56,382 bases of DNA. Origin: a virus (taxonomy: Duplodnaviria > Caudoviricetes). The translations under genes and the position numbers were made by a program. The stretch is taken from positions 1-56,382 of IMG/VR virus record IMGVR_UViG_3300037762_000131, one strand, 5' to 3'. The notes under the pieces were generated by a model. That model saw only the letters and a list, made by a program, of their open reading frames with translations. It was not told the origin of the DNA and made no database searches. Below are positions 1 through 23,737 of the stretch, piece after piece. Position 1 is the stretch's first letter. The number at the start of each line of letters is the position of its first letter.

Positions 1-127
1 CGCTTGATGATGGGCTGGCCCACACGGCGCTCCTCATCATCGGGAACAAAGCCGATGACGACGCCGAGCACACCCCTGTCGGGATAGTTCCAGTAGACGC
101 TGTCGCCCTTGGACGGCGCCCACCACT
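1..127. repeat. Terminal direct overlap, copy 1 (circular assembly)
   Basis: Positions 1-127 are identical to 56256-56382. A length of 127 matches a common assembler k-mer size, and an ORF reads through the join. Confidence 0.95.
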
Positions 128-170
128 TCGGCTCGCGCGTCCTTGCTGATAGCGGGTATGCCGACTTCAT
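1..170 (-). CDS. Hypothetical protein (90 aa), 5' part; spans the circular join (170->1, then 56255->56153)
   Basis: ATG at 170 overlaps the upstream stop (ATGA). MKSAYPLSAR...EGRIG* reads open across the join and its TGA overlaps the ATG at 56156. Confidence 0.75.
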   Translation of the reverse strand, partial: MKSAYPLSARTREPKWWAPSKGDSVYWNYPDRGVLGVVIGFVPDDEERRVGQPIIK

Positions 171-364
171 GTTTGATCCCCTAGGCTGGCTGCGCGGGCA
201 TGCTTGAGGCGACTACGAGCTGTGGCCAACTGCGTGCGTATATCATCCACCGTCATTGCATTATCAAGAATGACATCAATAGCTACTACTGCATCATCAA
301 CGCCTTGACAATAAGCGCGCAATGCCACATCCATAGCTGCATGTTGTGTTGTTATAGCAATCAT
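167..364 (-). CDS. Hypothetical protein (locally AT-richer)
   Basis: MIAITTQH...; ATGA overlaps with neighbours at both ends. Confidence 0.6.
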   Translation of the reverse strand: MIAITTQHAAMDVALRAYCQGVDDAVVAIDVILDNAMTVDDIRTQLATARSRLKHARAASLGDQT

Positions 365-648
365 GACGAGGGCCTGTTCATGGTTTTTCTGGACAGTCGC
401 CGTTCGGCCTCGGCGCGCCCGACATCGGTGAGCCGGTAGTAGCGGCGCGGCGGACGCTTCTTCTCCGACGGGTCGATCTGCTCCCACCCGTCAGTCACCC
501 AACCCTCGTCCAGCATCCTGTGCAAGATCGGGTAGAGCACGCCGGAGCGGACGCCTGACCACTTCGAGATCTGGTAGCCGTAGTGGCGGCCGTCGGGGTC
601 CTGCATCAGCGTGGATAGGACCATCCTGAGCGATTGGGTGTTCCGCAT
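361..648 (-). CDS. PadR-family winged-helix regulator
   Basis: HYGYQI..SGVRSGVLYPILHRMLDEGWV...RRYYRLTDVG is the PadR signature. Start trimmed to the ATG at 648. Confidence 0.9.
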   Translation of the reverse strand: MRNTQSLRMVLSTLMQDPDGRHYGYQISKWSGVRSGVLYPILHRMLDEGWVTDGWEQIDPSEKKRPPRRYYRLTDVGRAEAERRLSRKTMNRPSS

Positions 649-658
649 CCCCGCTAGC

Positions 659-700
659 CTACCTAGGTAGCGATGTCTCTGCTGCGCGGCTACGCGTAGC
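659..700. promoter_or_regulatory. Palindromic operator(s) upstream of the PadR gene
   Basis: Perfect palindromes CTACCTAGGTAG (659-670) and GCTACGCGTAGC (689-700) lie immediately upstream of the start. Confidence 0.55.
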
Positions 701-721
701 CATCCACACCCCGAAGGCGTT

Positions 722-1396
722 CTAACTGGATGACCGTTCTTTCCTGCGCTTGGCCTTGTAGGCGCGGTTGCGTTCTGACTGCGCCGCATAGCACGCGTCG
801 CATCGGCAGCCGTAGTACCCGTAGGTGTAGGCGGTACCGTGTTCCACGTTGTCGGGGATGCCCCGTTCACGGCGGGCTGCGGTGACACGGGCTTTGTCGT
901 CGGCGTTGGCTGCAGTGCACGCGTCGCACCGGCAGAACCAATACTCATATCCCTGCTTAGTCCCGTGCGGCACGACCGACGGATCCCGTTCAGCCAGTTC
1001 GCGGCGGGCTGCAGCCCGCCGCAGATCGTGCGTTTTGACGCAGCGTTCGCAGCGGCATTCCAGGGTGTCGTAGGTCCCGATGGTTCCGTGTTCCGCGTCG
1101 GACCTCGCGGCGGCCAACCGCTGTTGCCGCTCGGCCCGCTCGGCGCGGCGCCGATCCCGGTGCTTGTCCGCCATGATGGTGTTGGTAACCCATTGTGCGG
1201 TCGCGCATTTCCAGCAGCGACACCCGAAGAACTTGTAGACCCGCGCGAACCCGTGCTCGGCGTCGTCAGGGACACCACGCTTCCTTGCCCGTTTGCGATA
1301 GAGGCGGTTGTGCTCGCGGTTCGCGTCGCGGCAGGGTTCGCAGCGGCACCTGTCCTTGTTGTAGGCGGTGATGGTCCCGTGTTCGTAGCGGCTCAC
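722..1396 (-). CDS. Protein of five HGxxxxYxxxxCRCxxC zinc-finger-like repeats
   Basis: Five His/Cys repeats separated by Arg-rich helical linkers. Confidence 0.8.
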   Translation of the reverse strand: MSRYEHGTITAYNKDRCRCEPCRDANREHNRLYRKRARKRGVPDDAEHGFARVYKFFGCRCWKCATAQWVTNTIMADKHRDRRRAERAERQQRLAAARSDAEHGTIGTYDTLECRCERCVKTHDLRRAAARRELAERDPSVVPHGTKQGYEYWFCRCDACTAANADDKARVTAARRERGIPDNVEHGTAYTYGYYGCRCDACYAAQSERNRAYKAKRRKERSSS

Positions 1397-1399
1397 CTG

Positions 1400-1477
1400 T
1401 CACTCATCCCGTGACTCCGGTTTGACTCCCATCGGTGTGCAAGCCCACCGGACTCCACGGCACTGCAGCGGCACGCA
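1400..1477. repeat. 78-bp att-arm-like repeat, copy A
   Basis: 75/78 identical to 2942-3019; contains paired GTGACTCC/TTGACTCC direct repeats. Confidence 0.9.
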
Positions 1478-1484
1478 CAACAAC

Positions 1485-2717
1485 TCACGACCCCACCGTT
1501 CCGTCGAAAGTGAATACATCCTGCGCGAGCCGCCGGGCGATGAGCTGGCAGTAGTCGGCGTTGAGTTCGACGAGGAGTGAGCGGCGGCCGAGCCGGCGGG
1601 CCATGACGGCGGTGGTGCCGGCACCCGCGAACGGGTCGGCGACGGTGCCGGCGGCCCATCCGGCGTCACAGCCACAATCCGACCAGCCGACCGTCTGACG
1701 TTCAGCCGGCTTGCCGAAGCCGCCAGCCGCGCGGTCATCAGGGTCCGAGAGCGACCTGCTCAACGGCGCCGCGTTGCCGTTCAGCCCGTAGCGCATCGGA
1801 TCGCCGTCAGCCTTGCGGCGATCCCACGACGACGCCGACGCTTCGACGATGCGTTGGCGGCCGGCGCCGCACGCCCGACACGCCCACTCCGGCACCGTCG
1901 CGAGAATGGGGCGGCGGACCAGCTCCGGTGGGAACATCGCGAAGTGGCCATACGGGTTCGGGACAGTGGGGATGGTCCACACATCACCCGGATTCGCGCC
2001 GGACGATGGCGTCCACTCACGGTGCAGTTGCTCTACGGACCCGCCATCGGTCGTCGCCGCTCGTGCTTGTGCCAAACCCCGCGAAGTGGAGTAGCGAGAC
2101 CGGTCGATACTTGACCCCCGGTGGGGTTCGCGGATGGCGTCCAAATCGTAGTGATAGCGGGGTTGGCGGACGAAATGGAACAACGCCTCATGCTTCGTCG
2201 CCAACCGGTCCGTAGCAGATGAGGGCATGCCGTTGGGTTTGGCCCAGACGACGCGGTTGCGGAAGATCCAGCCGCGTTCGATGAGGGCGAGTGCGACGCG
2301 TTCGGGGATCATCAACAGACACTTGTTCGGGAAGTCGGTGGCTGATGTCGGCGGCCGCCCTGTGCCGTGCGCCATGTCAAGACGCTCTCGTTTCGGTCGC
2401 GACCCGACCGTCGCAGTAGCCCCGTAGTTGCCCCACGATCCGCTGTAGCTGTCGCCGAGGTTGAGCCACAACGACCCATCCGCCCGCAACACCGAAGTAC
2501 CCCAGTCGGTCAGCAGGTCGGCCAGCGGTTCGATGTACTCGGCGGGTGACTCCTCCAACCCGAGCTGCCCGTCGACGCCGTAGTCCCGCAGCCCGTAGTA
2601 CGGGGGGCTGGTGATGATCGCGTGGGCGGACTGCTCGGGCAGGTGTTGCCAGATGGTGCGGGCGTCGCCACAGTGGAGGGTGACGTCGGATGCCTGCCAG
2701 TACGGGACGGCGGTCAT
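1485..2717 (-). CDS. Beta-class N4-C/N6-A DNA methyltransferase with inserted Cys-rich segment
   Basis: ITSPPY motif IV, WLNLGDSY, HFAMFPPEL, C-terminal DPFAGAGTT motif I; CxxC...CxC insertion before motif I. Confidence 0.92.
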   Translation of the reverse strand: MTAVPYWQASDVTLHCGDARTIWQHLPEQSAHAIITSPPYYGLRDYGVDGQLGLEESPAEYIEPLADLLTDWGTSVLRADGSLWLNLGDSYSGSWGNYGATATVGSRPKRERLDMAHGTGRPPTSATDFPNKCLLMIPERVALALIERGWIFRNRVVWAKPNGMPSSATDRLATKHEALFHFVRQPRYHYDLDAIREPHRGSSIDRSRYSTSRGLAQARAATTDGGSVEQLHREWTPSSGANPGDVWTIPTVPNPYGHFAMFPPELVRRPILATVPEWACRACGAGRQRIVEASASSWDRRKADGDPMRYGLNGNAAPLSRSLSDPDDRAAGGFGKPAERQTVGWSDCGCDAGWAAGTVADPFAGAGTTAVMARRLGRRSLLVELNADYCQLIARRLAQDVFTFDGTVGS

Positions 2718-2718
2718 G

Positions 2719-2949
2719 TCAGCGCAGTCGATTGTTGTTGGTCATGACCTTCAACGCGAAGAGACTGCCCTTGAGCCTGTTCGTGTTGCCTTTCCCCCGT
2801 CCCGACGAAAGGTGATAGGCGTCGCAGTTGTCGTCCTGGCAGACGGTGATGTACCACTCCGGACGACCCCCGAGCTTGCGTAGGCGACGCAGGGCATCGG
2901 CGGCGATGGCTGCCGTCGCATACTTCTTCTTGGTGCAGCGCTCACTCAT
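2719..2949 (-). CDS. Small basic Cys/His protein (CxKKKY...CxxxxCxxYHL)
   Basis: ATG directly after repeat copy B, with GGAG 7 nt upstream. Confidence 0.7.
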   Translation of the reverse strand: MSERCTKKKYATAAIAADALRRLRKLGGRPEWYITVCQDDNCDAYHLSSGRGKGNTNRLKGSLFALKVMTNNNRLR

Positions 2950-3260
2950 CCCGTGACTCCGGTTTGACTCCCATCGGCGTGCGAGCCCACCGGACTCCAC
3001 GGGACTGCAGCGGCACGCAACCCCCCAGAACCCTGGAACAGTGCGGGTTTTGTGCGTGTCCACGCAACTGCACGCAACCCCACCGGACGGGGGGCGGATG
3101 GTTGACCGCCATGTGAACCCCTCGGCCCATCACGACTCGAACCCCGGCGCCGACACCCGAGAAATGGCTTGCCCACGCTGTTTCATGGGATTCATGAGAT
3201 TCATGGGAGTCGTGGATCTCATGGATTCCATGGCCCGTGACTCCCATCTGACTCCCATCC
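2942..3260. other. Putative attP (arm-type pairs near 2953-2972 and 3237-3256 flanking 9-10-bp periodic accessory-factor repeats)
   Basis: Largely non-coding gap downstream of the integrase. TGACTCC direct-repeat pairs at both ends; TTCATGGGA-like 9-bp tandem repeats at 3181-3232. Core site not identified. Confidence 0.7.
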
Positions 3261-3265
3261 GCGAG

Positions 3266-3408
3266 CTAGCGCTGCCATGACGACTCCGAATAGCTGCCCA
3301 GCATCCAGATACCTGCCTTCTTCCAACCTCGCCAGAAATCGGGTGAGGTCGTCGATCGGCATCCGCGGATATCAGACTCGATGAACCTGAACTCGTCTTC
3401 GAGCGTCA
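3266..3408 (-). CDS. Small hypothetical protein (approximate start)
   Basis: MTLEDEFRFIESDIRG...; coupled to the upstream small membrane ORF. Confidence 0.4.
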
Positions 3409-3552
3409 TCGCTCTACCGCCGCGCCGACGAGCACACCGACCGCGCCACCGCCGAACCCCAACAGGATCTTGGCGCCCAACGACATGTCGAATGTCAATG
3501 CGACGGCCAGCACTATCGCCATGGCGGCGATCCAACCTATGAATCTCATCAT
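3406..3552 (-). CDS. Small two-helix membrane protein (approximate start)
   Basis: MMRFIGWIAAMAIVLAVALTF...ILLGFGGGAVGVLVGAA is hydrophobic. Confidence 0.5.
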   Translation of the reverse strand: MMRFIGWIAAMAIVLAVALTFDMSLGAKILLGFGGGAVGVLVGAAVER

Positions 3553-3819
3553 TGCCACGCCTCCCATACCAGCCACCCCACTGCGAACAGCAGCCACCAG
3601 CCGGCGACCCAACGGAACAGGCTCCGCCGGTCGTTCCAGACGGCCCGTTTGAGATCGGCCCACGATCGTTGCAGGTCGTCCCACGGGTCATTCCATGGCT
3701 CGTTCATCTGGTGGTCCTTTTGGCGGTCCGCTCCGCCGCCGCCCCACGCCTCACCCGGCGCTCCTCGGGTGCCCGTCGGGACCCAGAGGCCACGTGCGCA
3801 TAGGTCCCGACGGACAGAC

Positions 3820-5007
3820 TCATCCTGTGATCCTTTTGGCGATCCGTTCGGCGGCGGCCCGATGCTGCCGGTCGGACACATGCCGATAGGTGCCCAACGT
3901 CGTGGACACATGCGCGTGCCCCAACCGCTCCGACACCACCTTGGCGTCCACACCCGCGTCCAACGCCATCGTCGCGTACCCGTGCCGCAACGCATGCACA
4001 TCAATCCGAGGGAGCCCCAAGGCTTTTGCGTGGCGGCGCAACGCCCGCCACAACCGGTCCGGATGCATCACACTGCCGTCTTCCCAGCACACCACCAGAT
4101 CCAGGTCGTGGTAGGCGGGGCCGCACGCCAGCTTTTCTTGCGACAAACGGGCGTGATGGGTCCTGAGAACCTCCACAGTCCGCGCGTCGAGTTCGACGGT
4201 CCGTTCCCCCGCCCGCGTCTTCGCGCCGTCCACCCACACCGGCCTGTTGTCAACCTCGGTCAACTCCCACCGCACCCTGAGCGCACCAGACTCAAGGTCG
4301 ACATCCTCCCAGTGCAGGCCGCACGCCTCCCCCCGCCGCAAACCCGTCGTCGCCAGCAGCCGCCACACCGGCCACAGCCGATCCCGCTTGGCTTCGAGCC
4401 AGGCGAGCCACCGGCCGGTCTGCTCCGGCGTCCACACCCGCTCGCTGTTCCTCGATGTCGCCGCCCTCTCCGACGGCGGGTGCGCCAACCCCGCCACATT
4501 CCGCGACACATACCCGCGCTCCACCGCCACCGCCAACGCCCGGTGCAACGCCACATGTGCAGACCGGACCGTCTTCGGCGACAGCGGTCCCACGTCCCGC
4601 AGCTTGCCCTTCGCTGTCCTGCGCTGCCACCCGCCGCGCTCGAGCAGCCGATACACCGCGTCGACCTGCTCCGCCGACAGCTTCTCCAACTTGATGCCGC
4701 CGAGATGCGGGATCAGATACCACTCGCACATGTTCCGACGATGCGCCGTGGTCGTCGCCTTCCCCCCAACCCCCACATACCAGGCGCGGAGATAGCCGGC
4801 GACCGTCTGCCGCTGCTCACGAACCAGAGGGATGTCGCCGGCCGCGATGCGGCCGCGCAACCCGTCCTCCCACACCCGCGCCTCACGTTTGGTGGCGAAC
4901 CCGCGTTTCGTGGACTTCCGCCGGCGGCCGTCCGGATGAGGTGGCAGCTCGTAGTTGACCCGCCACCGCTCCCGCCCCCTCCCGTCGACATACTTATGCA
5001 CACTCAC
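3820..5007 (-). CDS. int: Tyrosine integrase with N-terminal arm-binding domain
   Basis: GLRRGEACGL (R), AKT (K), HALRH, LGH and TYRH (Y) catalytic residues; N-terminal WRVNY..KRGFATKREA. GTG start overlaps the upstream TGA. Confidence 0.96.
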   Translation of the reverse strand: MSVHKYVDGRGRERWRVNYELPPHPDGRRRKSTKRGFATKREARVWEDGLRGRIAAGDIPLVREQRQTVAGYLRAWYVGVGGKATTTAHRRNMCEWYLIPHLGGIKLEKLSAEQVDAVYRLLERGGWQRRTAKGKLRDVGPLSPKTVRSAHVALHRALAVAVERGYVSRNVAGLAHPPSERAATSRNSERVWTPEQTGRWLAWLEAKRDRLWPVWRLLATTGLRRGEACGLHWEDVDLESGALRVRWELTEVDNRPVWVDGAKTRAGERTVELDARTVEVLRTHHARLSQEKLACGPAYHDLDLVVCWEDGSVMHPDRLWRALRRHAKALGLPRIDVHALRHGYATMALDAGVDAKVVSERLGHAHVSTTLGTYRHVSDRQHRAAAERIAKRITG

Positions 5008-5345
5008 AACGACCGTGCTTCTACCCAGCGGGGCATCTTGCGAGGGTGGAACACGACCTCCCAGTGCGGGCCGCAGACTTCGCCGTGGTTGATCTGCCAG
5101 ACCCGTTGCAGGTGCATGACGGGCATCCCGAAGTTCATGCAGACAGCGAGGACGCGCCACCCTTCACCGTGTGAGCCGACGAAGCCTACGGTCGGGTCGC
5201 AGTAGGCGTGGCCTTCGCCGCCCTCGCACGACTCGGTGGTGTGGACGTCGTGGTCGAGGAGGATCTTCACGGCATGCGCGATGCCGAGATCCAGCGGGTC
5301 GCCCGGGCAGATCGCCTTCGCTATCTCCTCGGCGGTCTGTGTCAT
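5004..5345 (-). CDS. Hypothetical protein (DxGI..TTESCEG motif)
   Basis: AGGA RBS; coupled overlaps on both sides. Confidence 0.7.
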   Translation of the reverse strand: MTQTAEEIAKAICPGDPLDLGIAHAVKILLDHDVHTTESCEGGEGHAYCDPTVGFVGSHGEGWRVLAVCMNFGMPVMHLQRVWQINHGEVCGPHWEVVFHPRKMPRWVEARSL

Positions 5346-5572
5346 CTGCTGTTCCTTTTGGTGTCGAACGCCTGGACGTCCAACGCGTCGCACGCGGCGA
5401 TCAGCGCGTCCTCCGCCCGATCCAACAACACCTCATCCACCCGCTCCAGGCGGACCGACGGGGTGTCAGCTATCCGCCCCGCCAACGCCTTCACCCTGCG
5501 CGCGTGCTCGATCCGGTCCTGGTAGCGGTGGTACGCCTGGTCGCCCGCAGCCCCACGCCCCCCGGCCATCAA
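5342..5572 (-). CDS. Hypothetical protein
   Basis: ATGA-coupled in the leftward operon. Confidence 0.55.
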   Translation of the reverse strand: MMAGGRGAAGDQAYHRYQDRIEHARRVKALAGRIADTPSVRLERVDEVLLDRAEDALIAACDALDVQAFDTKRNSR

Positions 5573-5766
5573 GATTCACCATCCATCGGCGAATTCGCGT
5601 TGTCCCATCCCAAGTGGCGCTCGACTTCGCCCAGCACCGCCTCCGGTCCGATCCACCACTCGGCATCCGCGTTCGGGTACTCACGGATTGCGGCTGCGAC
5701 CTTCCCCCGCAACTCATGGTGGAAGTGATCGCCGTCGTGTGCTTCGCATCGCAGCGGGTTCACCAT
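5569..5766 (-). CDS. Hypothetical protein
   Basis: Strong AAGGAGG RBS upstream; coupled to the next ORF. Confidence 0.6.
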   Translation of the reverse strand: MVNPLRCEAHDGDHFHHELRGKVAAAIREYPNADAEWWIGPEAVLGEVERHLGWDNANSPMDGES

Positions 5767-6023
5767 GACCCCTCCTTACTGTCCGTCGAATCCTTACAGC
5801 CCTGTGTCATCCGTTTGCTTTCACCCAGTGGAAGACGGCAGCCTTACGCACCTGCCGTACGCACCAGGGGTCACCATGCACGCCACGCCAGCACACCTCG
5901 CCTTGGCGGCCGCCGCCGTGGTTCTCCGGTGGGCCGCTGAGAACGGCCGCCTCCGCGACGAGTTGGCGTGGCACCGTGACGCCTTGCATTCGGCGCGGTC
6001 GGCGTTGGACGGCGCGTCGGCGG

Positions 6024-6365
6024 TCATCGCCTGTGGACGTAGCTTCGATAGTGAGCGACCAGAGCGTCCCGCTGAATCTGCGTGAGTTCCTTGTCGCGGC
6101 GCACCACTTCCTCGAAGCTCGGCCAACCACGGGGAGGTAGTTCGCCGTCGTTCCTGTCGAGCTGCTGCTCGATCGCGGTGACTGACGTGCCGAGTGCTTG
6201 TGCGAGTCGCGCCAAGTTCTCCAGGGTGATCGTGTTGTGGATGCCCCGTTCGATGCGGGACAGGGTGGATGTGTCGACGTTGGCGCGACGTGCAAGTTCG
6301 GTCATGGAGTAGCCGGCGTCCTCGCGTAGCCCGCGTAGGACGTCGCCCACACTCCGTTTCTCCAT
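6024..6365 (-). CDS. XRE-family HTH immunity repressor (probable)
   Basis: LRGLREDAGYSMTELARRANVDTSTLSRIERG; co-oriented with int; leaderless start just after a TTGCGC-N18-TATCCT promoter. Confidence 0.85.
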   Translation of the reverse strand: MEKRSVGDVLRGLREDAGYSMTELARRANVDTSTLSRIERGIHNTITLENLARLAQALGTSVTAIEQQLDRNDGELPPRGWPSFEEVVRRDKELTQIQRDALVAHYRSYVHRR

Positions 6366-6372
6366 GAGCGCA

Positions 6373-6402
6373 AGGATACGCATGTCCCTTGCTCATGCGC
6401 AA
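6373..6402 (-). promoter_or_regulatory. Leaderless promoter of the repressor, overlapping a GCGCAAC operator-like motif
   Basis: TTGCGC (6402-6397), 18-nt spacer, TATCCT (6378-6373), then ATG 7 nt later. Confidence 0.6.
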
Positions 6403-6411
6403 CCCCCCTTG

Positions 6412-7461
6412 TTACCGGTCGGTAGCGGCGGCGCCGTGGACAAAGCCGCAAGCAGGACATGCATGCGTGGCGGCTGATTCAGTCCCGGCCGCGGCAGGCG
6501 CTGTCTTGGCTCGTTCCTCACGCCTGCCGCGTTCCTGATCGACCACCTTTTGGACGCTGGCGGGGGTCCGGTTGCGCGTGGTGTCCAAGCCGAGGACTTC
6601 GTGGCCGAGTTCGTCCATCGTCTTGCCCTGCTCGAAGTAGCCCTCAATGATGTCAGCTTCCTGCTCGGGGGTGACTCTCGGTCGGCCCCCACGCGTCTTA
6701 GGTTTCCCATCGTGGGAAACTCCCGCGATGTCCCGGCCAACCGTCGAGGCGCTTACTTTGAGCGCCTCCGCGATCCGCTCAATCGTCCAGTCGCGCTCGC
6801 CATACAGGTACTCGGCGATCTCCTTACGCTCTTCCGGGGTGAATGGCTTCGCGCCGAGATTCGACCCGATCGCGTACGCGAACCGCTTGGCGTCGGCCTC
6901 ATCTCCTTGGCCGAGGGTGACCTTGGTGATCACCGGTTTGATCCCCAGCTCCTGCGCCACAGCCAGCCGCCGGTGGCCGACCAGGATCACTCCACGCTCA
7001 TCCGCGATTGCTGGCAATTCGGGCAGCCATCCGAACGAGCGCATCGACTCGCGCAACTCGGCCATGGTGTCCTTGCCCGTGTTGCGGCGGATGTTGTCCG
7101 AGAACCGTCCGGTCATCGGGTCGAACGGCGCGTGAAACCGCGCATATGGATCGTCGTACAGGTGCAGCAGCTTCTTGCCGGGATACCGGACCTTGTCGGC
7201 GTCGCGGGTTAAGCGGTAGCCACTGCCGTTCATCTCGACCTGCGAACCGAGCTCGGCGATCGCACGGTCGATCAGCCACGCCTCGGCCTCGGTGTTGCTG
7301 GCGCAGCCCTCCTGCGACCGGACACGCGCCAAGTCCCCCGTGTTCGGATGCTGATAGCTTGCCGCCAGGTCCGAGGCCGGCAAGGCCGCCGGAGCGGCCC
7401 TGCCAAGCTCGGTGGCGACGTGACGCACCGGACTCACAAGATCCAATGGGTAGTCGCCCAT
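6412..7461 (-). CDS. ParB/Srx-fold protein with HTH and C-terminal CPACG zinc knuckle
   Basis: NIRR..ELRESMRSFGW..AIADERGVILVGHRRL; WTIERIAEALKVSASTVGRD HTH. Confidence 0.82.
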   Translation of the reverse strand: MGDYPLDLVSPVRHVATELGRAAPAALPASDLAASYQHPNTGDLARVRSQEGCASNTEAEAWLIDRAIAELGSQVEMNGSGYRLTRDADKVRYPGKKLLHLYDDPYARFHAPFDPMTGRFSDNIRRNTGKDTMAELRESMRSFGWLPELPAIADERGVILVGHRRLAVAQELGIKPVITKVTLGQGDEADAKRFAYAIGSNLGAKPFTPEERKEIAEYLYGERDWTIERIAEALKVSASTVGRDIAGVSHDGKPKTRGGRPRVTPEQEADIIEGYFEQGKTMDELGHEVLGLDTTRNRTPASVQKVVDQERGRREERAKTAPAAAGTESAATHACPACGFVHGAAATDR

Positions 7462-7467
7462 AGCCGA

Positions 7468-8478
7468 TCAGCCCTTTCGTGCCAGCTCAGCGAGCACGTC
7501 CTCCGTGGTGGAGTTGCGCTGCATCCGCAGGACCTCGATCAGCACAACGACGGCCTCGGTGAGCGCCTCTGTGTGCGTCTCGTTGACCTTCGGGTCCGTC
7601 TCCAGCAGCTCCTGCTCGCGCTCGGCGAACTTCTTGATGAACCCGAGGCGCTGCCGCAACTGCCGTGACACCGGAGGCTTGCCGCTGCCGGTCAGCTCCT
7701 TTTCGCGGATCCTGTCACCGAGCTCCATCCGCAGCTCCGACACAGCATCGATCGCGCCCTGGTCGGAGCCGGTGTCGCGCATCTCCTTCGCGGTGTCCTT
7801 GATCTCGCTGGCGTTCAATCCGGCGTCCGCCGCGAGCGACGCCAGCTCCTTGTAGGGCACGTCGTTCAGCGCGACTACGTCCTTCGCGCCCAACGCGCGC
7901 AGCGACGGGCCACCGACGGCGCCGTTGGGGTTAAGCCCGACACGGCGCATCTTCGCCGCCGCGTCGATCTCCCGTTTGACCTGCGTGACGCTGCTTGACT
8001 TCAACCCGATCGCCCGGCCGATCTGCTCGGTCTTCCAACCGAGCTCGACCAACCGCGTCGCGACCTCGCGGGTCTCGCGGCCCGTGAGCGGCACGCCGTT
8101 CGACGCGTTGAGGGTCGCCGCGAGCGCGTGTAGCTCGTTCTGCCGCTTGCGGTTCGCGCCACCCCAGGCGACGTCCAGGACGATCGCGGGGCAGAACTTC
8201 TCCTTGCGGAGCAGCCTGGCGCCGACGCGGGTGTTGCCGTCCACGATCCAGTCGTCGGAGGTCACGACGATCGGCGGGAACGGGGTCTCGCCCATCTGGA
8301 CGGCGTACCGTTGGACGGAGTCCTTCGGCGCGTAGTGCTTGGGTTCACGGACCTGGATGCGCCGGTCGGGACTGAGCCGGGTGAGGTCGAAGTCAGCGAC
8401 CTCGCTCCAGTCGAAACCGAGGCGTTCAATCTCGGTCACGGCGCTGGGTTTGGTAGGGGTTGCAGACGGTACAGCCAT
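7468..8478 (-). CDS. ParB-like N-terminal domain protein with HTH
   Basis: QVR..VQRYAVQM..FPPIVV..IVDGNTRV; WKTEQIGRAIGLKSSSVTQ HTH; GAAAGGAGG RBS. Confidence 0.78.
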   Translation of the reverse strand: MAVPSATPTKPSAVTEIERLGFDWSEVADFDLTRLSPDRRIQVREPKHYAPKDSVQRYAVQMGETPFPPIVVTSDDWIVDGNTRVGARLLRKEKFCPAIVLDVAWGGANRKRQNELHALAATLNASNGVPLTGRETREVATRLVELGWKTEQIGRAIGLKSSSVTQVKREIDAAAKMRRVGLNPNGAVGGPSLRALGAKDVVALNDVPYKELASLAADAGLNASEIKDTAKEMRDTGSDQGAIDAVSELRMELGDRIREKELTGSGKPPVSRQLRQRLGFIKKFAEREQELLETDPKVNETHTEALTEAVVVLIEVLRMQRNSTTEDVLAELARKG

Positions 8479-8536
8479 CTGTAGCCCCTCCTTTCTTTGG
8501 TGGTTGGCAACCCTTGTGGCCGCCACTGCCTGGCAC

Positions 8537-8600
8537 ACGGTAGCGGACGCAATGGATCTGCGCAACTCCCTTGCGCAACCGTGCGCCACGGATATACGCT
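8537..8600. promoter_or_regulatory. Divergent promoter pair with TGCGCAAC repeats (genetic switch)
   Basis: Rightward TTGCGC(8571)-N18-TACGCT(8595)-N6-ATG; leftward TTGCGC(8565)-N17-TACCGT(8542); TGCGCAAC at 8559 and 8572. Confidence 0.6.
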
Positions 8601-8606
8601 GGACCC

Positions 8607-8876
8607 ATGCCAGCCAGATACCGCATCCTCGAAGCCGCCACCCGCCAGTTCATACGAGAGCGCACCCGCGAACCTGACGGCACGAACAAAGGCGACGGGC
8701 TCGCCAAGTTCGCCGCGCTCATCGGCGTCTCCGTCGGGCAACTGTCCCGCATCCTCAACGGCCGCGTCGACCTCACCTGGGACATGCGCAGCCGCATCGC
8801 CGACGGCCTCGGCGTCCCACCAGCAGCCATCGGCGAAGAAATCCGCGACATCGACACACAGGCGGTGAACTCCTGA
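8607..8876 (+). CDS. Cro-like XRE HTH protein
   Basis: LAKFAALIGVSVGQLSRILNG..RIADGLGV; first gene of the rightward early operon. Confidence 0.82.
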   Translation: MPARYRILEAATRQFIRERTREPDGTNKGDGLAKFAALIGVSVGQLSRILNGRVDLTWDMRSRIADGLGVPPAAIGEEIRDIDTQAVNS

Positions 8877-9142
8877 TGCGCGTCCGTCACAAGCCGACGA
8901 CGGTCGACGCGGTCCGCTGGGACGGCTCAGCGACCGCCCTTCAAGAGCTGATCGCGCTCGGCCTGACCGCGTACCGGTACGAACCCACCGTCGGCGACTC
9001 GACCGTCACGTTGGTGATCTCCACCGGCGAGGGCGACCGGCCTGCGCTGCCCGGCGACTACGTCGTCAAGGGCACGGCCGGGGAGTTCTACCCGATCCGC
9101 CCGGACGTCTATGAGGCGTGCTACGAGGTGGTGAGTTCATGA
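8876..9142 (+). CDS. Small conserved phage protein (KPxxVxAVRW...PGDYVVKG..GEFYP family)
   Basis: Motif typical of a widespread phage family; function unknown. Confidence 0.8.
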   Translation: MRVRHKPTTVDAVRWDGSATALQELIALGLTAYRYEPTVGDSTVTLVISTGEGDRPALPGDYVVKGTAGEFYPIRPDVYEACYEVVSS

Positions 9143-9465
9143 GCGCAGTCCTGACGCTTGTTCACAAGCCGACCGTCGTCAAAGCCGTCCGCTGGGACGA
9201 CACCGCCGAGGCCCGCGCCGCGCTTGCGTCTATCGGGTTCCAGTTCGGCCTCCACGGCTACCTCGGTGACGGTCCCGGCCCGCGGACGCTGACCATCCGC
9301 ACCCCCGAAGGCGACCGGGCCGCCCGACCCGGCGAGTCGACCGTCATCCAAGGGACGCGGGGTCAGTGGTACTGCATCGGCCACGACGTCGAAGCCGACT
9401 GCTACGACCCCGTGCTGGTCGAGATCGGGCCGATCACGGTCACCGGCACCGGCGGTGCGTCGTGA
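9139..9465 (+). CDS. Paralogue of 8876-9142
   Basis: HKPTVVKAVRWD...EGDRAARPG..GQWY..CYD aligns with its neighbour. Confidence 0.75.
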   Translation: MSAVLTLVHKPTVVKAVRWDDTAEARAALASIGFQFGLHGYLGDGPGPRTLTIRTPEGDRAARPGESTVIQGTRGQWYCIGHDVEADCYDPVLVEIGPITVTGTGGAS

Positions 9466-9749
9466 GGCGCGCTGTCGCCAACGAGCTGGCGGTCGAGCGC
9501 CTCGTAGCCGCCATCGACCGGCTCACCGATCTGCTCACCGCCGAAGTCGAGCATCGCACCCCGATGCTTGACGCCGGGATGCTCACCGTCGCCGAAACCG
9601 CCGCCATTTTGCGGTGGTCGGAGGACACCGTGTACCGCCGCTGCCATATCGACCTGCCCTGCATCCGCCACGGCAACTCCTACCGCATCCCCCGCCACGC
9701 CCTCAACCAATGGCTCCTCGAACAAGCGCTTAAGGCCGGTGCCGCATGA
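9462..9749 (+). CDS. xis: Excisionase-like HTH protein
   Basis: MLTVAETAAILRWSEDTVYR..LPCIRHGNSYRIPRHALNQWL. Confidence 0.75.
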   Translation: MRRAVANELAVERLVAAIDRLTDLLTAEVEHRTPMLDAGMLTVAETAAILRWSEDTVYRRCHIDLPCIRHGNSYRIPRHALNQWLLEQALKAGAA

Positions 9750-10240
9750 ACCGGCCGTACGTCGTCAAGCTCGGCGACTGGTGGACCGCAGGCTGCCCTG
9801 ACTGCGGTTGGCGTAGCGACGGTTGGATCTGGTGTGAAGCCGTTCGCTCGGCACACCTTCATGCACGCCGCCTGCTCGGACCGTGGCATGCCTGACTTCA
9901 GGTGTGGCTGCCAGCTACCCCCGCGGCTGGGCGGCCACGGCCCGCCGGGCACGTCTGGCGCTCCGGATGCCTACGGACGACGCCGGTTTCGCTCGGCGGG
10001 CACTCTCTCTCACCTGTCCCATCCGAGACCAAGGCCTCACGCGACCTCCGTGGCGGTCGCCTGCAGCCGTCGGCCGCGAGTTGCAGGCCTCGGATGGGCG
10101 CAATCCACCCCCGCCCTCACCGGCTCACCCCCGGCGCCAGGGCGGGGCCAGACAACACAAGAGGGAGCGTCAGCCAACAGCGACGACGACTGACGCTCCC
10201 ACAAGCCCCGGAACCCGGAACCCGCAACGGAGGCTACACG

Positions 10241-10465
10241 ATGCTCAACACACGCCACCTCATGCACAAACGGCCCCTACCCGTCCGCAGCTACGGCCGG
10301 CAAGTCGCACGACGCCTGCGCAGCGACCCACTCGCGGACTTCCGCGACGAACCATGCAGACGGTGGCCGTGGTGGGCGACGTGGCTGCTCACCGTAACCG
10401 TCACCGTCGCAGCCGGCCTCGCGACCGGCGCCGCGCTCGCCCACACCCTCACCAACCACCCATGA
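10241..10465 (+). CDS. Small membrane protein
   Basis: GGAGG RBS; C-terminal hydrophobic helix. Confidence 0.55.
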   Translation: MLNTRHLMHKRPLPVRSYGRQVARRLRSDPLADFRDEPCRRWPWWATWLLTVTVTVAAGLATGAALAHTLTNHP

Positions 10466-10692
10466 ACACCGCAGCCACGTGCGACATGGCCATCCACCTC
10501 GACGACGTCACAGACGACGACATCGAGATCTACGGCATGAACCATCAAAGGAGTGGTCACCGGTCGCTGTCGTTCGGCACGGCACGGCAGCAGATGACCG
10601 TGTTCAACACCCGCGACGGACTGCGGACGCTGCTGCAACGGCTGAACGACCGCCTCGACCAACTCGACACCGAGGCAGGTGACGACACGTGA
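10462..10692 (+). CDS. Hypothetical protein
   Basis: ATGA/GTGA-coupled. Confidence 0.6.
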   Translation: MNTAATCDMAIHLDDVTDDDIEIYGMNHQRSGHRSLSFGTARQQMTVFNTRDGLRTLLQRLNDRLDQLDTEAGDDT

Positions 10693-10964
10693 GCCGTCTC
10701 AGCATCGGGTTTCGCATCAAGTGGCAAGACCCCGGCCACACCCACTTCAGCGTCTTCGCAGCCCTCGCACGCGAAGAGGACGACCGTGAGTGGGCCGACA
10801 TCACCCGCGCTAATGCAGGCTCATTGACGCTTCGCACCGACGAGTTCGAGGCGCTCGCCATGTGCCTGGAGAACGAAGAGGCAACCGACCCCGAGCGCGT
10901 GCACATTGACATATACCGCGACCCGCAGGGTCCGCACCCATGCCTAGAGGCGGTTGTGTCGTGA
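10689..10964 (+). CDS. Hypothetical protein
   Basis: Coupled ORF in the early operon. Confidence 0.6.
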   Translation: MSRLSIGFRIKWQDPGHTHFSVFAALAREEDDREWADITRANAGSLTLRTDEFEALAMCLENEEATDPERVHIDIYRDPQGPHPCLEAVVS

Positions 10965-11149
10965 GCTGGTGGCAGTGGGCGCTCGTCTGGCTCGCCGCAT
11001 CCGCCATCGTCGCACTCATAGTCGGCCGGGTGCTCGGGCGCCTGTCCGAGATGGATGAACGCCGTTGGCATGCGATTCAAGAGCGTGACAAGGCGCGTGA
11101 TGAGTGGTTGCGCCACATCCGCGAGAAGGCTGGCGACCGCGATGGGTGA
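10961..11149 (+). CDS. Small membrane-anchored protein
   Basis: N-terminal WWQWALVWLAASAIVALIVG helix. Confidence 0.55.
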   Translation: MSWWQWALVWLAASAIVALIVGRVLGRLSEMDERRWHAIQERDKARDEWLRHIREKAGDRDG

Positions 11150-11426
11150 CCTCAACTCTGAGCTCACCGAACTGTTGCGCGACATGCGCCACCAAGCCGG
11201 ACTCACCCAAAGCGAACTCAGCCAACGACTTGGGTGGGCGTCCCACTACAAGGGCGCGGGCTACGGCTGCCCGCAGGTCAGCAAGTACGAGCACGGCGTC
11301 AAGGTCCCCAAGTGGGACGTGCTCGGTCGGTGGGCGGCGGCGTGCGGGTTCCACGCCGAACTCGTCATCACGCGCCCCGGCGCCGGCCGCTGGGTCGTCC
11401 CCCTTAACGACGGACCGAACCCATGA
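11142..11426 (+). CDS. XRE-family HTH protein, paralogue 1
   Basis: LRDMRHQAGLTQSELSQRLG..VSKYEHG..P. Confidence 0.85.
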   Translation: MGDLNSELTELLRDMRHQAGLTQSELSQRLGWASHYKGAGYGCPQVSKYEHGVKVPKWDVLGRWAAACGFHAELVITRPGAGRWVVPLNDGPNP

Positions 11427-11569
11427 CCGCGAAACGCATGCGCCGCCGCGCCGCCCGCCGCGACGTCGCCGCACATGACTGCGACGAACACTGCGCCGTC
11501 GTCGGCCCCCCATACGCCCACTGGTGGCGTGTCTGCCTGTCCTGCGGCAGAACCTGGAAACGCACATGA
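11423..11569 (+). CDS. Small Cys/His-rich protein (48 aa)
   Basis: ATGA overlaps at both ends; HDCDEHC..CLSCG. Confidence 0.5.
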   Translation: MTAKRMRRRAARRDVAAHDCDEHCAVVGPPYAHWWRVCLSCGRTWKRT

Positions 11570-11838
11570 CCGACCTCGACGCGCAGCTCACCGAACTCCT
11601 CCGCGACATGCGCCACCAAGCCGGACTCACCGGGGCAGACCTCGCCAACCGAATCGGTTGGCACGGGAAGCAACGCCGCACCGTTGTCAGCAACTACGAA
11701 TGCGGCCGATACATCCCCGGACTCGAGCTGGTCGGCCGGTGGGCCGCCGCGTGCGGGCTCCACGCCGAACTCGTCATCACACCACGAGGAACCGGCAGCC
11801 CGTGGGTCGTGCCGCTCAACGACGGACCACAACCATGA
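11566..11838 (+). CDS. XRE-family HTH protein, paralogue 2
   Basis: LRDMRHQAGLTGADLANRIG..VSNYECG..P. Confidence 0.85.
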   Translation: MTDLDAQLTELLRDMRHQAGLTGADLANRIGWHGKQRRTVVSNYECGRYIPGLELVGRWAAACGLHAELVITPRGTGSPWVVPLNDGPQP

Positions 11839-12032
11839 CCGGCATCGGCGGCTACGGCGGCAACGAACTGCTCGCGATGCACTGCTGGCTGTGCCCCTAC
11901 CCCATCGCCGTCGGCAGCGTCTACCACGGACGCAACGGCGAACCCCCCGCCCACCTCGCCTGCTGGCAAAACCACAACACCACGACGCCGCTCAAACGAC
12001 CCGACCTCACCCGACAAGGACTCGACCGGTGA
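11835..12032 (+). CDS. Small zinc-binding protein (CxxC..HxxC)
   Basis: Coupled ORF; CWLC...HLAC. Confidence 0.55.
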   Translation: MTGIGGYGGNELLAMHCWLCPYPIAVGSVYHGRNGEPPAHLACWQNHNTTTPLKRPDLTRQGLDR

Positions 12033-12376
12033 CCGAACTGAAACGACCGCGGCGCCGCACCCGCATCAACAGGATCGCCTGGCTCGAACGGGAAAACGAA
12101 CGGCTCCGCGAAGAAAACGACCTACTCCGCGCCAGCCTCGACCACATCCCCCCACACACGACCGTGCCCGCCGCGCCGCCCACTCCCGGGCCGCTGCGAC
12201 CCGCCGCCGACGGCCTCGTCATGGGCGCCCTGAAAGTACCCGTCCAACGCCCCGACTGCGGCCAGTGTGACGGGAAGCTCGACCGCGTCGCCAGCGACGA
12301 CCGCAGCGGCCTGCGGTTCTACATCTGCGACACCTGCCACCACCCCACCCGACGCATCGGAGCCGCGCATGGCTGA
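12029..12376 (+). CDS. Coiled-coil plus zinc-ribbon protein
   Basis: LERENERLREENDLL; CGQC..CDTC. Confidence 0.6.
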   Translation: MTELKRPRRRTRINRIAWLERENERLREENDLLRASLDHIPPHTTVPAAPPTPGPLRPAADGLVMGALKVPVQRPDCGQCDGKLDRVASDDRSGLRFYICDTCHHPTRRIGAAHG

Positions 12377-12596
12377 CAGCTGGATCGAGCTGGCAAACGG
12401 CCGCCGCTACGAGATCGCCAAGACCAACGGCCTGTACCTCGAAGAAGGCCAGTACGTGGTGGTCGACGACGGCGACACCATCCGCGCACGCCTCGTGGAG
12501 ACCGCGCTGGGCGCAGGAATGGTCATCTTCGACGGCGATGATCGCGTCTGCCAAGTGAGTGGCGAGGTGCTGGTGCTGGCAAGGGAACTGCCATGA
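12369..12596 (+). CDS. Hypothetical protein
   Basis: GGAG RBS; coupled. Confidence 0.55.
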   Translation: MADSWIELANGRRYEIAKTNGLYLEEGQYVVVDDGDTIRARLVETALGAGMVIFDGDDRVCQVSGEVLVLARELP

Positions 12597-12850
12597 CTGA
12601 ATACGACGACTACTACCGCCACTGGCTGGGCGCCATCTCCGACGCAGGCGAACGCGGACTACAACAAACCAGCTACGCGGCTGGCAACTACGGCGCGATC
12701 CCCACCGCGACCGCCGCCAAGCTCATCCGCGAAGGCCTCGCCCACAAGAACCCCCTCTACCGCGTATGCATCACCGAAGCCGGCCGGTTACGCCTCCAAC
12801 AGTTGCAGGAGCCCGCCGTCGAACTCCACACCCCCAAGGACACCCGATGA
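12593..12850 (+). CDS. Hypothetical protein (winged-helix-like)
   Basis: TAAKLIREGLA..ITEAGR pattern. Confidence 0.55.
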   Translation: MTEYDDYYRHWLGAISDAGERGLQQTSYAAGNYGAIPTATAAKLIREGLAHKNPLYRVCITEAGRLRLQQLQEPAVELHTPKDTR

Positions 12851-13728
12851 CCACCGCGGTCGAGAAACACCCGCCGGTCGATGTCACTCAAACGTCCGAC
12901 GACGACCAGCAACTCTGGTCCGTCACCACCATCCTGTCCGCCCTCGACCGGCCCGCGCTCACCTACTGGGCGTGCGAGAAAACCGCCGTCGCCGCCGTCA
13001 ACCAATCGAACACGTGGCGGGGGATGCTCGCCGACGACCACCCCGACTGCGACCACACCGACGCCCAAGCGTGCGCGGCGGTGAAGTGGCTCCGCGACGC
13101 CAGATGGCGGAAGGCGCCCGGCGAGAAATCCGACACCGAGATGGGCACCGACGTCCACACCGCATGCGAGGAATACGTCTTGACCGGCGTCCGACCGGAC
13201 GTGTCCGCCGACATCGAGCCCTACCTACGGCAGTTCGAAGCGTGGTGCCAGAAAGCGCAGCCCGCCTACGAGGCCGCAGAGATGACCGTCTATGCGCCGA
13301 CCTATGGCCATGCCGGAACGATGGACGCAATCCTGACCATCAATGACACGAAATTCGCAGTTGATTACAAGACGTCGAAGAAACCGTTCGATGCGAAGGG
13401 CAATAAGAAGCGCTGCTATCCGGAGCTGTCTCTCCAGCTCGCCGCCTATGTCAATTCTGAGTTCGCGGCGGCCTGGCGGCCCCGCCGGTACGAGAAGTGG
13501 CGCCGCCGCTACTACCTTCTCAGCGACCATGAACGCTCCAACGCCATCTCCATTCCGGACGTCGACGCCGGTCTGGGAATCATGATCACGCCGGAGTTCT
13601 GTGACGCCTATGTCGTGGACGTCGGCGAGCGGCCTTACACCGCCTTTCTCTACTGCCTCGAAGCCCACCGCTGGCAGATCGAGACGTCGCGAACAGTCAT
13701 CAGCTCTGATCCGCTGGAGTTCGAATGA
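12847..13728 (+). CDS. PD-(D/E)XK exonuclease (phage recombination exonuclease-like)
   Basis: SVTTILS, GTDVH, E, AGTMD, VDYKTS, QLAAY motifs. Confidence 0.88.
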   Translation: MTTAVEKHPPVDVTQTSDDDQQLWSVTTILSALDRPALTYWACEKTAVAAVNQSNTWRGMLADDHPDCDHTDAQACAAVKWLRDARWRKAPGEKSDTEMGTDVHTACEEYVLTGVRPDVSADIEPYLRQFEAWCQKAQPAYEAAEMTVYAPTYGHAGTMDAILTINDTKFAVDYKTSKKPFDAKGNKKRCYPELSLQLAAYVNSEFAAAWRPRRYEKWRRRYYLLSDHERSNAISIPDVDAGLGIMITPEFCDAYVVDVGERPYTAFLYCLEAHRWQIETSRTVISSDPLEFE

Positions 13729-14582
13729 AGGTCTGCACGATCGAAGGATGTGCGCGCAGCACCCGCGCTCGCGGCTGGTGCGCAACGCACTATTCCCGAT
13801 GGCGGCGCAACGGCACAACCGAACGCGTGCGTCGAGGCGGCCCAAAGGCTTGCGCGATCGAGAACTGCCCCAAGCCCGCAGGTGTACCAGGCACCGCGCA
13901 CGGATGGTGCTCAACCCACTACAACCGTTGGAAGCGAACCGGCGACCCACTGCTCACGAAAACAGCCATGCGGCCACCACCGCCTGCCACATGCAACGTC
14001 GAAGGCTGCGAGAAGGCGCCGTGGTCGCGCGGTTGGTGTCCCATGCATCTCATGCGCTGGCGACAGACCGGCGACCCTGGCACAGCCGATCCCCAATGGC
14101 GCACCGCACATGGCCCTTGCCGCGTTGGCAGCTGCGATCGAGACGCCGTCGTCGGAGTGCACCAGCTTTGCAAACCTCATCATCTTCGGATGTGGCGCCA
14201 CGGTGATCCGACCGCAGGTGCGACATCGCCGCGCCCTGGCGCGACGTGCGACGTAACCGGATGCGCCGAACCCCACTATGCCCTGCGGCTATGCGGACGC
14301 CACTGGCGTCGCGCCTATCGGCCAGTCAAAAGCAAACAACGTCGCGAAGCTCCCGGTACTGCGAGCATCGCGCAGATCGAAGCTCGGTTGGCCTACTGGG
14401 GCTGGAAATGCTGGAACTGCCGACGCCCCTACGAGCAGATCGACCACGTCAAGCCCATCGCAAAGGGTGGTAGCAATTGGCCCGCCAACCTGCGGCCGGC
14501 TTGCCAATCATGCAATGCCCGCAAACGCAGTCGGTGGTTTGGCGTAGTGCGTCTTAACGAACTCATCCGGGAGGTGGCTTAA
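13725..14582 (+). CDS. HNH endonuclease with five N-terminal CxxxxC..CxxH zinc-finger repeats
   Basis: CWNC..IDHVKPIAKGGSNWPANLRPACQSCNARK; repeated CxxxGC..RGWCxxH. Confidence 0.9.
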   Translation: MKVCTIEGCARSTRARGWCATHYSRWRRNGTTERVRRGGPKACAIENCPKPAGVPGTAHGWCSTHYNRWKRTGDPLLTKTAMRPPPPATCNVEGCEKAPWSRGWCPMHLMRWRQTGDPGTADPQWRTAHGPCRVGSCDRDAVVGVHQLCKPHHLRMWRHGDPTAGATSPRPGATCDVTGCAEPHYALRLCGRHWRRAYRPVKSKQRREAPGTASIAQIEARLAYWGWKCWNCRRPYEQIDHVKPIAKGGSNWPANLRPACQSCNARKRSRWFGVVRLNELIREVA

Positions 14583-14583
14583 C

Positions 14584-15864: not shown

Positions 15865-16075
15865 CCACTGCCGCGTCTGCGGACCCCACTGGGACGCCAT
15901 CACCGGCGGCCTTTGCCTGCTGCACCTCGAACGCGCGTTGGACGCGACCCGGCATCTCTTGGATCTGCTCGACACGTCCTCGGACCTCCGCGACGTGCGC
16001 ATCAGACAGGACTGGGTGTGGGCCGTCCAGATCGCTGGGGGAGACCTCGCCGACCGGCTCGGCTACCCCACATGA
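15861..16075 (+). CDS. Small Cys/His protein (start approximate)
   Basis: CRVC..CLLH; overlaps the upstream stop. Confidence 0.45.
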
Positions 16076-16077
16076 CA

Positions 16078-16189
16078 TGTTGCGCCTACCCGTTGCGCGC
16101 CGCCGCACGGTTGCGGGTGGGTTCGCGGTGTGGCGCCGTTTCGGTGTTGCGCGAGACCGTTGCGCGCAACGCCACCGGCACGGTAGGGT
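16078..16189 (+). promoter_or_regulatory. Promoter with a cluster of GTTGCGC operator-like sites
   Basis: Several GTTGCG(C) copies, including palindromic GTTGCGCGCAAC; TTGCGC(16160)-N18-TAGGGT(16184)-N6-ATG(16196). Confidence 0.6.
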
Positions 16190-16195
16190 CATGCA

Positions 16196-16396
16196 ATGCC
16201 TGACACTGACACACCGCCACAGATACGAGCGGCGAACAAGGCGCGGGTCCGCGTCCTCGCCGACGCCGCCGCGAGAGACGACGACAAACTCCGCCGCGCC
16301 GTCAACATCGTCGTCGCCGCCATCGCCGCAGAACGACTCACGTTCTCAGATTTGAGACGCGAACTCGAAGCGCGCGCCGAAAAGGCCAGCGCGTGA
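16196..16396 (+). CDS. Hypothetical protein
   Basis: Leaderless start after the promoter; coupled to the MTase. Confidence 0.65.
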   Translation: MPDTDTPPQIRAANKARVRVLADAAARDDDKLRRAVNIVVAAIAAERLTFSDLRRELEARAEKASA

Positions 16397-18280: not shown

Positions 18281-18284
18281 ATCG

Positions 18285-19545: not shown

Positions 19546-19599
19546 GCGAACAGCGGCATTCAACGGCCACCACCCAACCGCCGCCCTGGAGAGCCCGCT

Positions 19600-20998: not shown

Positions 20999-20999
20999 C

Positions 21000-21345: not shown

Positions 21346-21347
21346 TC

Positions 21348-23714: not shown

Positions 23715-23737
23715 GTTCGGCTGATATCTTCGGCGGC

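Follow-up and report, generated by a model that had tools for sequence, protein, structure and literature searches.

The subject of this analysis is a family of direct repeats in a 56,382-nucleotide stretch of viral DNA (Duplodnaviria; Caudoviricetes), the IMG/VR record IMGVR_UViG_3300037762_000131, which was analyzed at its full length and is referred to below as the window. The defining element of the family is a closely spaced pair of TGACTCC heptamers. Two of its five copies flank a putative phage attachment site (attP) beside the gene of a tyrosine integrase (Int), and three others stand at the heads of accessory (“cargo”) genes that are transcribed leftward. On balance, the sequence comparisons favor the view that Int arm-site pairs have been reiterated in front of cargo operons, where they would act as joints for the gain and loss of gene modules. 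Arm-type sites and the repeat-mediated shuffling of modules are both known from other systems; the reiteration of arm-site pairs ahead of cargo operons, outside attP, would be new.

The virus record is complete, with a 127-nt terminal overlap (positions 1-127 equal 56256-56382), a unit length of 56,255 bp, and a G+C content of 66.6%. The phage is temperate and comes from a sediment metagenome. Its early, structural, and lysis genes run rightward from ~8.6 to 55.1 kb, and a leftward block, extending from 55,496 over the junction to ~8.6 kb, contains the cargo genes, attP, the tyrosine integrase gene, and a candidate gene for an XRE-type repressor (6024..6383).

A repeat search of the window yielded a 78-nt family, comprising copies A, B, and C, and a 37-nt family that brings in copies D and E. 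The five copies are as follows.

1400..1477, plus strand: copy A, an extra copy, with its heptamer pair at 1412-1418 and 1423-1429; 75 of 78 positions (96%) identical to copy B
2942..3019, plus strand: copy B, the putative distal P arm, with its pair at 2954-2960 and 2965-2971
3234..3270, plus strand: copy E, the putative P' arm, with its pair at 3238-3244 and 3249-3255
55505..55585, plus strand: copy C, an extra copy, with its pair at 55518-55524 and 55528-55534 (3-nt spacer), heading the open reading frame (ORF) 55146..55496
55828..55864, plus strand: copy D, an extra copy, old and diverged, with its pair at 55832-55838 and 55843-55849, heading ORF 55596..55811

Over 55505-55582, copy C is 71% identical within the 78-nt family without gaps, and it aligns well once a 1-nt and a 10-nt indel are allowed. 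Copy B also holds a related third word, GGACTCC (2992-2998), and the first of several CACGCAAC words (3014-3021); in copy C the third word is deleted and ACTGCAGCGG is duplicated. The repeat is a real, nonrandom feature. The number of single heptamers in the window is unremarkable (11, versus 7.35 expected; 11 of 100 shuffles reach 11), and it is their arrangement that stands out: 10 of the 11 form five pairs at a spacing of 10 to 11 nt, and the paired pattern GTGACTCCNNNNTGACTCCCA, which misses copy C because of its 3-nt spacer, has 4 matches where 0.24 are expected, a count that none of 100 shuffles reaches. A profile built from seven copies recovers just the five window sites at E<=4e-10, with the next-best window match at E=15. 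The 9-mers CGTGACTCC and TGACTCCCA are intact in all seven copies, against an identity to the other copies of only 28-50% in the flanks of D and E. An initial reading of the DNA (the first-pass annotation) had noticed that the distal arm of the putative attP recurs at A and C, with a diverged pair at D, always in the same orientation; the repeat search and the heptamer count, with every TGACTCC on the plus strand, bear this out.

The features of the attachment site and its surroundings are listed here.

3061..3078, plus strand: two further CACGCAAC words (3061-3068 and 3071-3078) at a spacing of 10 nt, on the core side of pair B within the P arm; conserved in the related phage genome G001 (described below)
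3143..3159, plus strand: putative attP common core, the 17-mer CCCGGCGCCGACACCCG, which resembles a tRNA-Leu 3' end (3' strand of the T-arm plus acceptor strand)
3820..5031, minus strand: tyrosine integrase, with an Arm-DNA-bind_4 domain (PF14657, E=1e-8, residues 22-57) and a catalytic-family match (PF00589, E=1.1e-21)

The start codon of the integrase gene is uncertain, as the ORF stays open to 5160. The 17-nt core has a single exact copy in the genome, and other matches, with 2 to 3 mismatches, occur only at 4424 and 44886. Pair B ends 172 nt from the core, on the left side, and pair E begins 79 nt from it, on the right. When the core pattern is extended to 24 nt of T-arm plus acceptor, 22 of these positions agree with the 3' end of tRNA-Leu(GAG) in 19 of the 401 Actinomycetota genomes sampled.

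The relative that provides most of the comparative evidence, G001, is a 53,068-bp IMG/VR record that was found by motif scan and encodes an integrase 76% identical to that of the window. It contains exactly two heptamer pairs, located 169 and 70 nt from the core, and its 17-nt core is identical and is preceded by a T-arm; an Rfam search with this core gave a weak tRNA-like match (mascRNA, E=0.75). The stretch of P arm that joins the pair to the core is ~88-90% conserved between the two genomes. The P' arms cannot be aligned save for a 35-nt island, which is the E pair; since this island is defined by synteny and not by a motif search, it indicates constraint without the bias of such a search. 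After TGACTCCCA, the next base in the window is T for copies A, B, C, and E, and in G001 it is A for both copies, which is the same kind of per-phage covariation as that described for the arm-site consensus of the Cluster K mycobacteriophages (PMC3203893).

A more distant relative, L011, whose integrase is 33% identical to that of the window, has the same layout built from another word. At 11234-11509, directly downstream of its int gene, a tRNA-like T-arm and acceptor end is flanked by a triple and a pair of TTGCCCTCCGA words, phased at 11 nt and all in the same orientation. All three matches to this word in 21 kb lie at the att site, with 0.28 expected, and the site looks like a textbook attP of an uncultured phage. 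Thus, the position of the pairs is conserved with the related integrase of G001, and with the distant integrase of L011 the word differs and the layout is the same. ARAGORN scans of the window, G001, and L011 detected no tRNA.

Since the pairs flank a unique core beside an integrase with an arm-binding domain, keep their positions in G001, and share their layout with L011 and with published attP sites, they are likely to be arm-type sites of Int. In this assignment, the paired word (C)GTGACTCC-N3/4-TGACTCCCA would be the arm-type binding site of a lambda-like tyrosine integrase, and B and E would supply the P and P' arms of an ordinary attP that is built on a tRNA-Leu-like 3' end. The conserved positions, the unique tRNA-like core, and the adjoining integrase are what the arms of a real attP would be expected to display, in agreement with the first-pass annotation. 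In the reports on actinobacteriophage attP (L5, Giles, and Clusters J and K), direct-repeat pairs of ~10-11 bp on both sides of a tRNA-derived core, adjoining the gene of an arm-binding Int, are described as the norm (PMC3203893, PMC3706429, PMC10865867). As described in these sources, such sites are confined to attP, whereas here three more pairs lie 1.5 to 3.7 kb away, at the heads of cargo operons. On the circle, the distances from B are 1,542 bp for A, 3,377 bp for D, and 3,691 bp for C, which places these arm-like sites beyond the ~250-bp attP. The first-pass proposal that they are alternative arms for complexes of Int and excisionase (Xis) is therefore unlikely, as the extra copies are 1.5-3.7 kb from the only core.

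Two smaller features of the attP arms may be recorded here. The word CACGCAAC occurs three times in the P arm (3014-3021, 3061-3068, and 3071-3078), and copies A and C end inside the first of these; these words are candidate sites for excisionase or another accessory protein. Positions 3181-3234, in the part of the P' arm that separates the core from pair E, contain three tandem 9-nt units (TTCATGGGA, TTCATGAGA, and TTCATGGGA) followed by an inverted partner. These units are absent from G001, and an Rfam search with them returned just a spurious miRNA-type hairpin match (E=0.018); Rfam searches at the repeats likewise gave nothing meaningful, only spurious miRNA matches.

The genes on the leftward side of attP are divided by the repeats into modules headed by B, A, D, and C, as the first-pass annotation had mapped them and as the ORF positions confirm.

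1485..2949, minus strand: B-headed module, consisting of a 76-aa ORF (2719..2949) and a methyltransferase (MTase) gene (1485..2717)
1..1396, minus strand: A-headed operon, part 1, with the Zn-ribbon array gene (722..1396), the PadR gene (361..648), ORF 167..364, and the 5' part of a wrap-around gene (170..1)
55824..56255, minus strand: A-headed operon, part 2, with the 3' part of the wrap-around gene (56255..56153) and ORF 55824..56156
55596..55811, minus strand: D-headed single-gene module, 71 aa, no family match
55146..55496, minus strand: C-headed single-gene module, 116 aa, the sole cargo gene with an ortholog in G001 (89% amino acid identity)

Copies A, B, C, and D each end 3 to 20 nt ahead of the start codon with which a leftward gene or operon opens. 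Copy A begins 8 nt past the MTase stop codon and ends 3 nt ahead of the GTG (1396) of the Zn-ribbon-array operon; the left end of copy B extends over the ATG (2949) that opens the first leftward cargo gene; and the last 13 codons of ORF 55824..56156 come from copy D. The reading frames of the genes behind A and C do not stay open upstream, and the repeat is thus noncoding at these two places. Copy E is followed by no conserved gene start.

The MTase is an orphan type II-like N6/N4 DNA methyltransferase. The A-headed operon comprises five genes, one of them the wrap-around gene (56153..170); overlapping stop and start codons link the last four. Its first product is a 224-aa protein with five tandem zinc-ribbon-like modules of the form HGT..Y..GCRC..C; it belongs to no Pfam family, and its modules match the ends of phage families annotated as helix-turn-helix (DNA-binding), HNH, and integrase (N-terminal). 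A low-G+C island at 200-400 (47.5%, versus 66.6% for the window) covers ORF 167..364 of this operon and suggests a recent foreign insertion. For six of the eight cargo proteins scanned in both PADLOC and PHROGs no family was found in either, and among those six Pfam adds only PadR.

The evidence that the repeats serve as joints comes from the alignment of the window with G001. Window positions 55153-55585 correspond to G001 20142-19712 (90.6% identity) and positions 2949-3159 to G001 19785-19578 (88%), and the two alignments overlap in G001 by a 74-nt repeat. Where the window has C...B, G001 has a single copy, without the 3,691 bp and eight genes that lie between them, and the G001 ortholog of ORF 55146..55496 directly adjoins its P arm. 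Five of these eight genes have no tblastn match in G001, and the PadR protein, the Zn-ribbon modules, and the C-terminal end of the MTase match it only elsewhere, at 37-61% identity. The first-pass annotation had proposed comparing relatives for changes in gene content at the repeats, and this breakpoint lies exactly inside one. Further points in favor of joints are smaller: copy D carries the G001-type diagnostic bases, G001 has a 25-nt copy of the right-hand junction of copy A downstream of its homolog of ORF 55146..55496, and within its int-side gene array (17919-17998) it retains a decayed E-type remnant with a single mutated heptamer (profile E=0.062; the pairwise score is reached by 1 of 2,000 shuffles). 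A search for sequencing runs listed one DNA run (X1), probably from the source sample, and no RNA run. Among the contigs assembled from the DNA run, a second contig at about half depth has G001-type P-arm bases (window 2985-3115). Two related phages with the same attP thus co-occur, and such phages meet; as this contig comes from the source sample, it is not independent evidence.

The following scheme would account for these observations. Copies A, C, and D would be reiterations of the distal P arm, copied along with the short sequence leading into the first cargo gene. The att-adjacent accessory modules of related phages would have been stacked one behind another, each retaining its former piece of the P arm, possibly through the collapse of tandem lysogens or another illegitimate join. 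The copies would now provide portable homology, so that general recombination, RecA- or phage-mediated, between any two of them could add or remove whole modules. Int would not catalyze this exchange, as a core site is missing from the extra copies: no core-like sequence was found within 3 mismatches in the vicinity of A, C, or D. The repeats, at 74-78 nt and 90-96% identity, suffice for ordinary homologous recombination, which is probably how cassettes are exchanged, as opposed to integron-like strand exchange. A comparable process has been described for the PeSL cassettes of T4-type phages, where recombination between neighboring copies is the proposed mechanism (PMC2839356). In that case, too, short repeats punctuate a plastic region of nonessential genes and the differences between close relatives end in repeats (here in one case, G001). 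The PeSL of that report contain a strong sigma-70 promoter and a terminator stem-loop, neither of which was detected at any copy here in a scan for terminators and for promoters of the sigma-70 consensus type, and the repeat of the window is derived from, or common to, an att arm.

Several points weigh against this interpretation. One close relative and one breakpoint were examined, and that breakpoint can be read either as a gain or as a loss. No attB or host was found, no genome among the 401 sampled has fewer than 2 mismatches to the 24-nt core pattern, and a motif scan of 185,579 species genomes turned up no prophage with the motif. The proposed link between Int and the heptamer is drawn solely from geometry and conservation. 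The perfect 9-mers of copy D (18 of 18 positions, versus 46-50% identity in its flanks) are partly an effect of ascertainment, as copies without the motif would escape detection. On the right, A and C end within 3 nt of each other, and the junction of A recurs in G001; random illegitimate joins do not predict such coincidence, which hints at a defined unit and not at arbitrary scars. Finally, all of the extra copies contain GGAG and are placed directly ahead of start codons, in B the spacing to the ATG is 7 nt, and A and B can form a hairpin, so that a role as a leader or in translation is possible. Some source-run contigs end at repeats and none joins two repeat copies; assembled contigs cannot show rare variants and are therefore silent on deletions and circles.

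The position of the extra copies raises the question of regulation, which the first-pass annotation had considered in the form of Int-bound operators. The closeness of every extra pair to a start codon, which follows after 3-20 nt, makes this plausible: the copies may have kept the ability to bind Int, and the cargo operons would then respond to Int through occlusion. Int-dependent control of the cargo genes is a tentative addition to the view of the repeats as joints, one that we hold to be plausible though less probable than that view itself. Published precedents concern control of int itself. In KplE1, arm sites overlap the intS promoter, which IntS represses (PMC2951348), and in Cluster J, arm-type-like words overlap the int start, suggesting that Int regulates transcription (PMC3706429). 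The likeness is in the placement of arm-type words at a gene start or promoter; in those reports, though, the sites are in attL (KplE1) or, inverted, at the int start codon (Cluster J), whereas the window has direct pairs before accessory operons, for which regulation is a candidate function only. A bolder and rather doubtful combination is that integrase docking sites have been turned into both a small regulon and a cassette platform, in which the Int level would switch the cargo off and on, the copies would let operons swap between co-resident relatives, and the int-side gene array would be the second half of an att-centered accretion zone. Int would then be high at infection and induction and low in the settled prophage.

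The strongest competitor to the involvement of Int, though itself improbable, is that the repeat is the regulatory cassette (operator or leader) of leftward, probably prophage-expressed operons and is bound by another protein, with the copies around the core being present since attP is bordered by such operons. Candidate binders would be the five-module Zn-ribbon protein behind copy A, PadR, and the XRE-type repressor. The placement of A to D ahead of start codons, all pointing along transcription, would fit this explanation, as would the matches of the Zn-ribbon array to phage families annotated as DNA binding, whose tandem modules could read tandem words. Regulatory repeats in one orientation, directly upstream of the starts of nonstructural genes, are also known in actinobacteriophages, such as the asymmetric Cluster A stoperators and the SAS and ESAS elements of Cluster K (PMC3203893). 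As described there, however, those elements are far more numerous (93 SAS sites are tabulated), are spread over the nonstructural half of the genome, and are unrelated to attP, whereas the present family has five copies, of which two are in att arms and one of these, E, has no gene start. In G001, no gene starts after E at all, and in the window there is merely a 33-codon frame that crosses the core; yet E is the sole conserved island of the P' arm. Furthermore, G001 keeps both att-flanking pairs without an ortholog of the Zn-ribbon array at this place, an unrelated word in L011 has the same att geometry, and the copies lack sigma-70-like promoters and terminators (other promoter types were outside the scan).

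A role of the repeat in the mRNA, as a translation-initiation or RNA-leader element like the SAS/ESAS of the Cluster K mycobacteriophages, is very unlikely. The GGAG lies inside the second word, 7 nt from the ATG in B, and the hairpin of copies A and B, which buries it, is supported by folding (B, -46.4 kcal/mol, z=-3.7; A, z=-1.8). The fold is not kept in C, D, and E, which do no better than shuffles (z of -0.07, +0.62, and -0.11). The start codon is anywhere from 3 to 20 nt away, other Shine-Dalgarno-like runs are closer to the start in C, D, and G001, neither E nor its G001 ortholog has a conserved start codon, and there are merely five copies, all within 4.1 kb of attP.

Least probable of all, to the point of being hardly tenable, is an integron-like platform in which Int, with or without excisionase, would cut and join at the reiterated arms and move cassettes as circles: a tyrosine recombinase gene does adjoin one-orientation, repeat-bounded gene modules, as in integron attI/attC arrays, and one relative does differ by the content between two repeats, but arm-type sites are not sites of strand exchange in the lambda Int mechanism (PMC2951348), the repeats contain neither a crossover (core) site nor a conserved attC-comparable hairpin, the enzyme is a phage Int that carries an arm-binding domain, and repeats of this length and identity are already adequate for ordinary homologous recombination. 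Of the first-pass idea of integron-like joints for cassette gain and loss, the joints stand, with the G001 breakpoint inside the repeat, and the exchange catalyzed by Int does not.

Accessory genes of temperate phages (morons, defense genes, and methylases) cluster beside attachment sites. To our knowledge, the building of such att-adjacent arrays is poorly documented. Four module boundaries marked by copies of one att arm, together with a clean repeat-to-repeat indel in a relative, suggest a concrete route by which modules could be stacked and lost. Should Int bind the extra copies, integrase self-regulation, as in KplE1 and as suggested for Cluster J, would extend to the control of cargo genes. 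For uncultured phages without a known host, the pattern is also of practical use in finding attP, arm sites, and the limits of the cargo.

Database searches for further relatives gave the following results. The motif scan of viral contigs found 4 loci, of which 1 is related, and the P-arm 17-mer also found 4 loci in viral contigs, with G001 alone being related; the 15 single matches in genome contigs and the 27 single matches in metagenome contigs include no related locus. Searches for related loci with Int and with an Int alignment returned only G001 and L011, and a search with ORF 55146..55496 returned G001 only. ORF 55824..56156 gave one weak match (40% over 47 aa), and with the MTase 16 loci were found at 27-59% identity, all of them lacking the motif pair. 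Among isolated phages, a nucleotide search with the attP region and the structural genes had no match, and Int matched at no more than 33.5% identity; the sole match in a near-identity search was a 38-nt stretch in a Gordonia phage methylase. One locus of a different kind, at 5670-5720 of an Acidimicrobiales metagenome-assembled genome contig (L029), has four tandem 11-nt units with GACTCCCAC in the intergenic region between divergent genes. The 8-kb locus contains no tRNA, integrase genes were not looked for in it, and the word is the one used in the window, here in an apparently unrelated context.

The region between int and attP contains a second repeat family, in which the final ~46 nt of int are joined to an AAAGGA that resembles a Shine-Dalgarno sequence and to an ATGA start, in front of small genes. 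The window has two copies (3704-3749 and 3820-3865; 78% identical), and G001 (locus L012) has seven or eight at 16922-19192, each at the ATGAAC start of a small ORF, in an array that mirrors the P-arm array on the int side. A 41-codon frame at 3707-3829 was considered as a longer remnant of the int 3' end and was dropped, as BLASTP gave no alignment and the DNA alignment supports the last ~46 nt only.

Far from attP, positions 49031-51451 contain up to 16 copies of a 59-72-nt unit, with a commonest period of 63 nt, or 21 codons. These units sit inside the large rightward ORFs 48531..49688 and 49688..51574 and probably encode the repeats of a tail-fiber-like protein.

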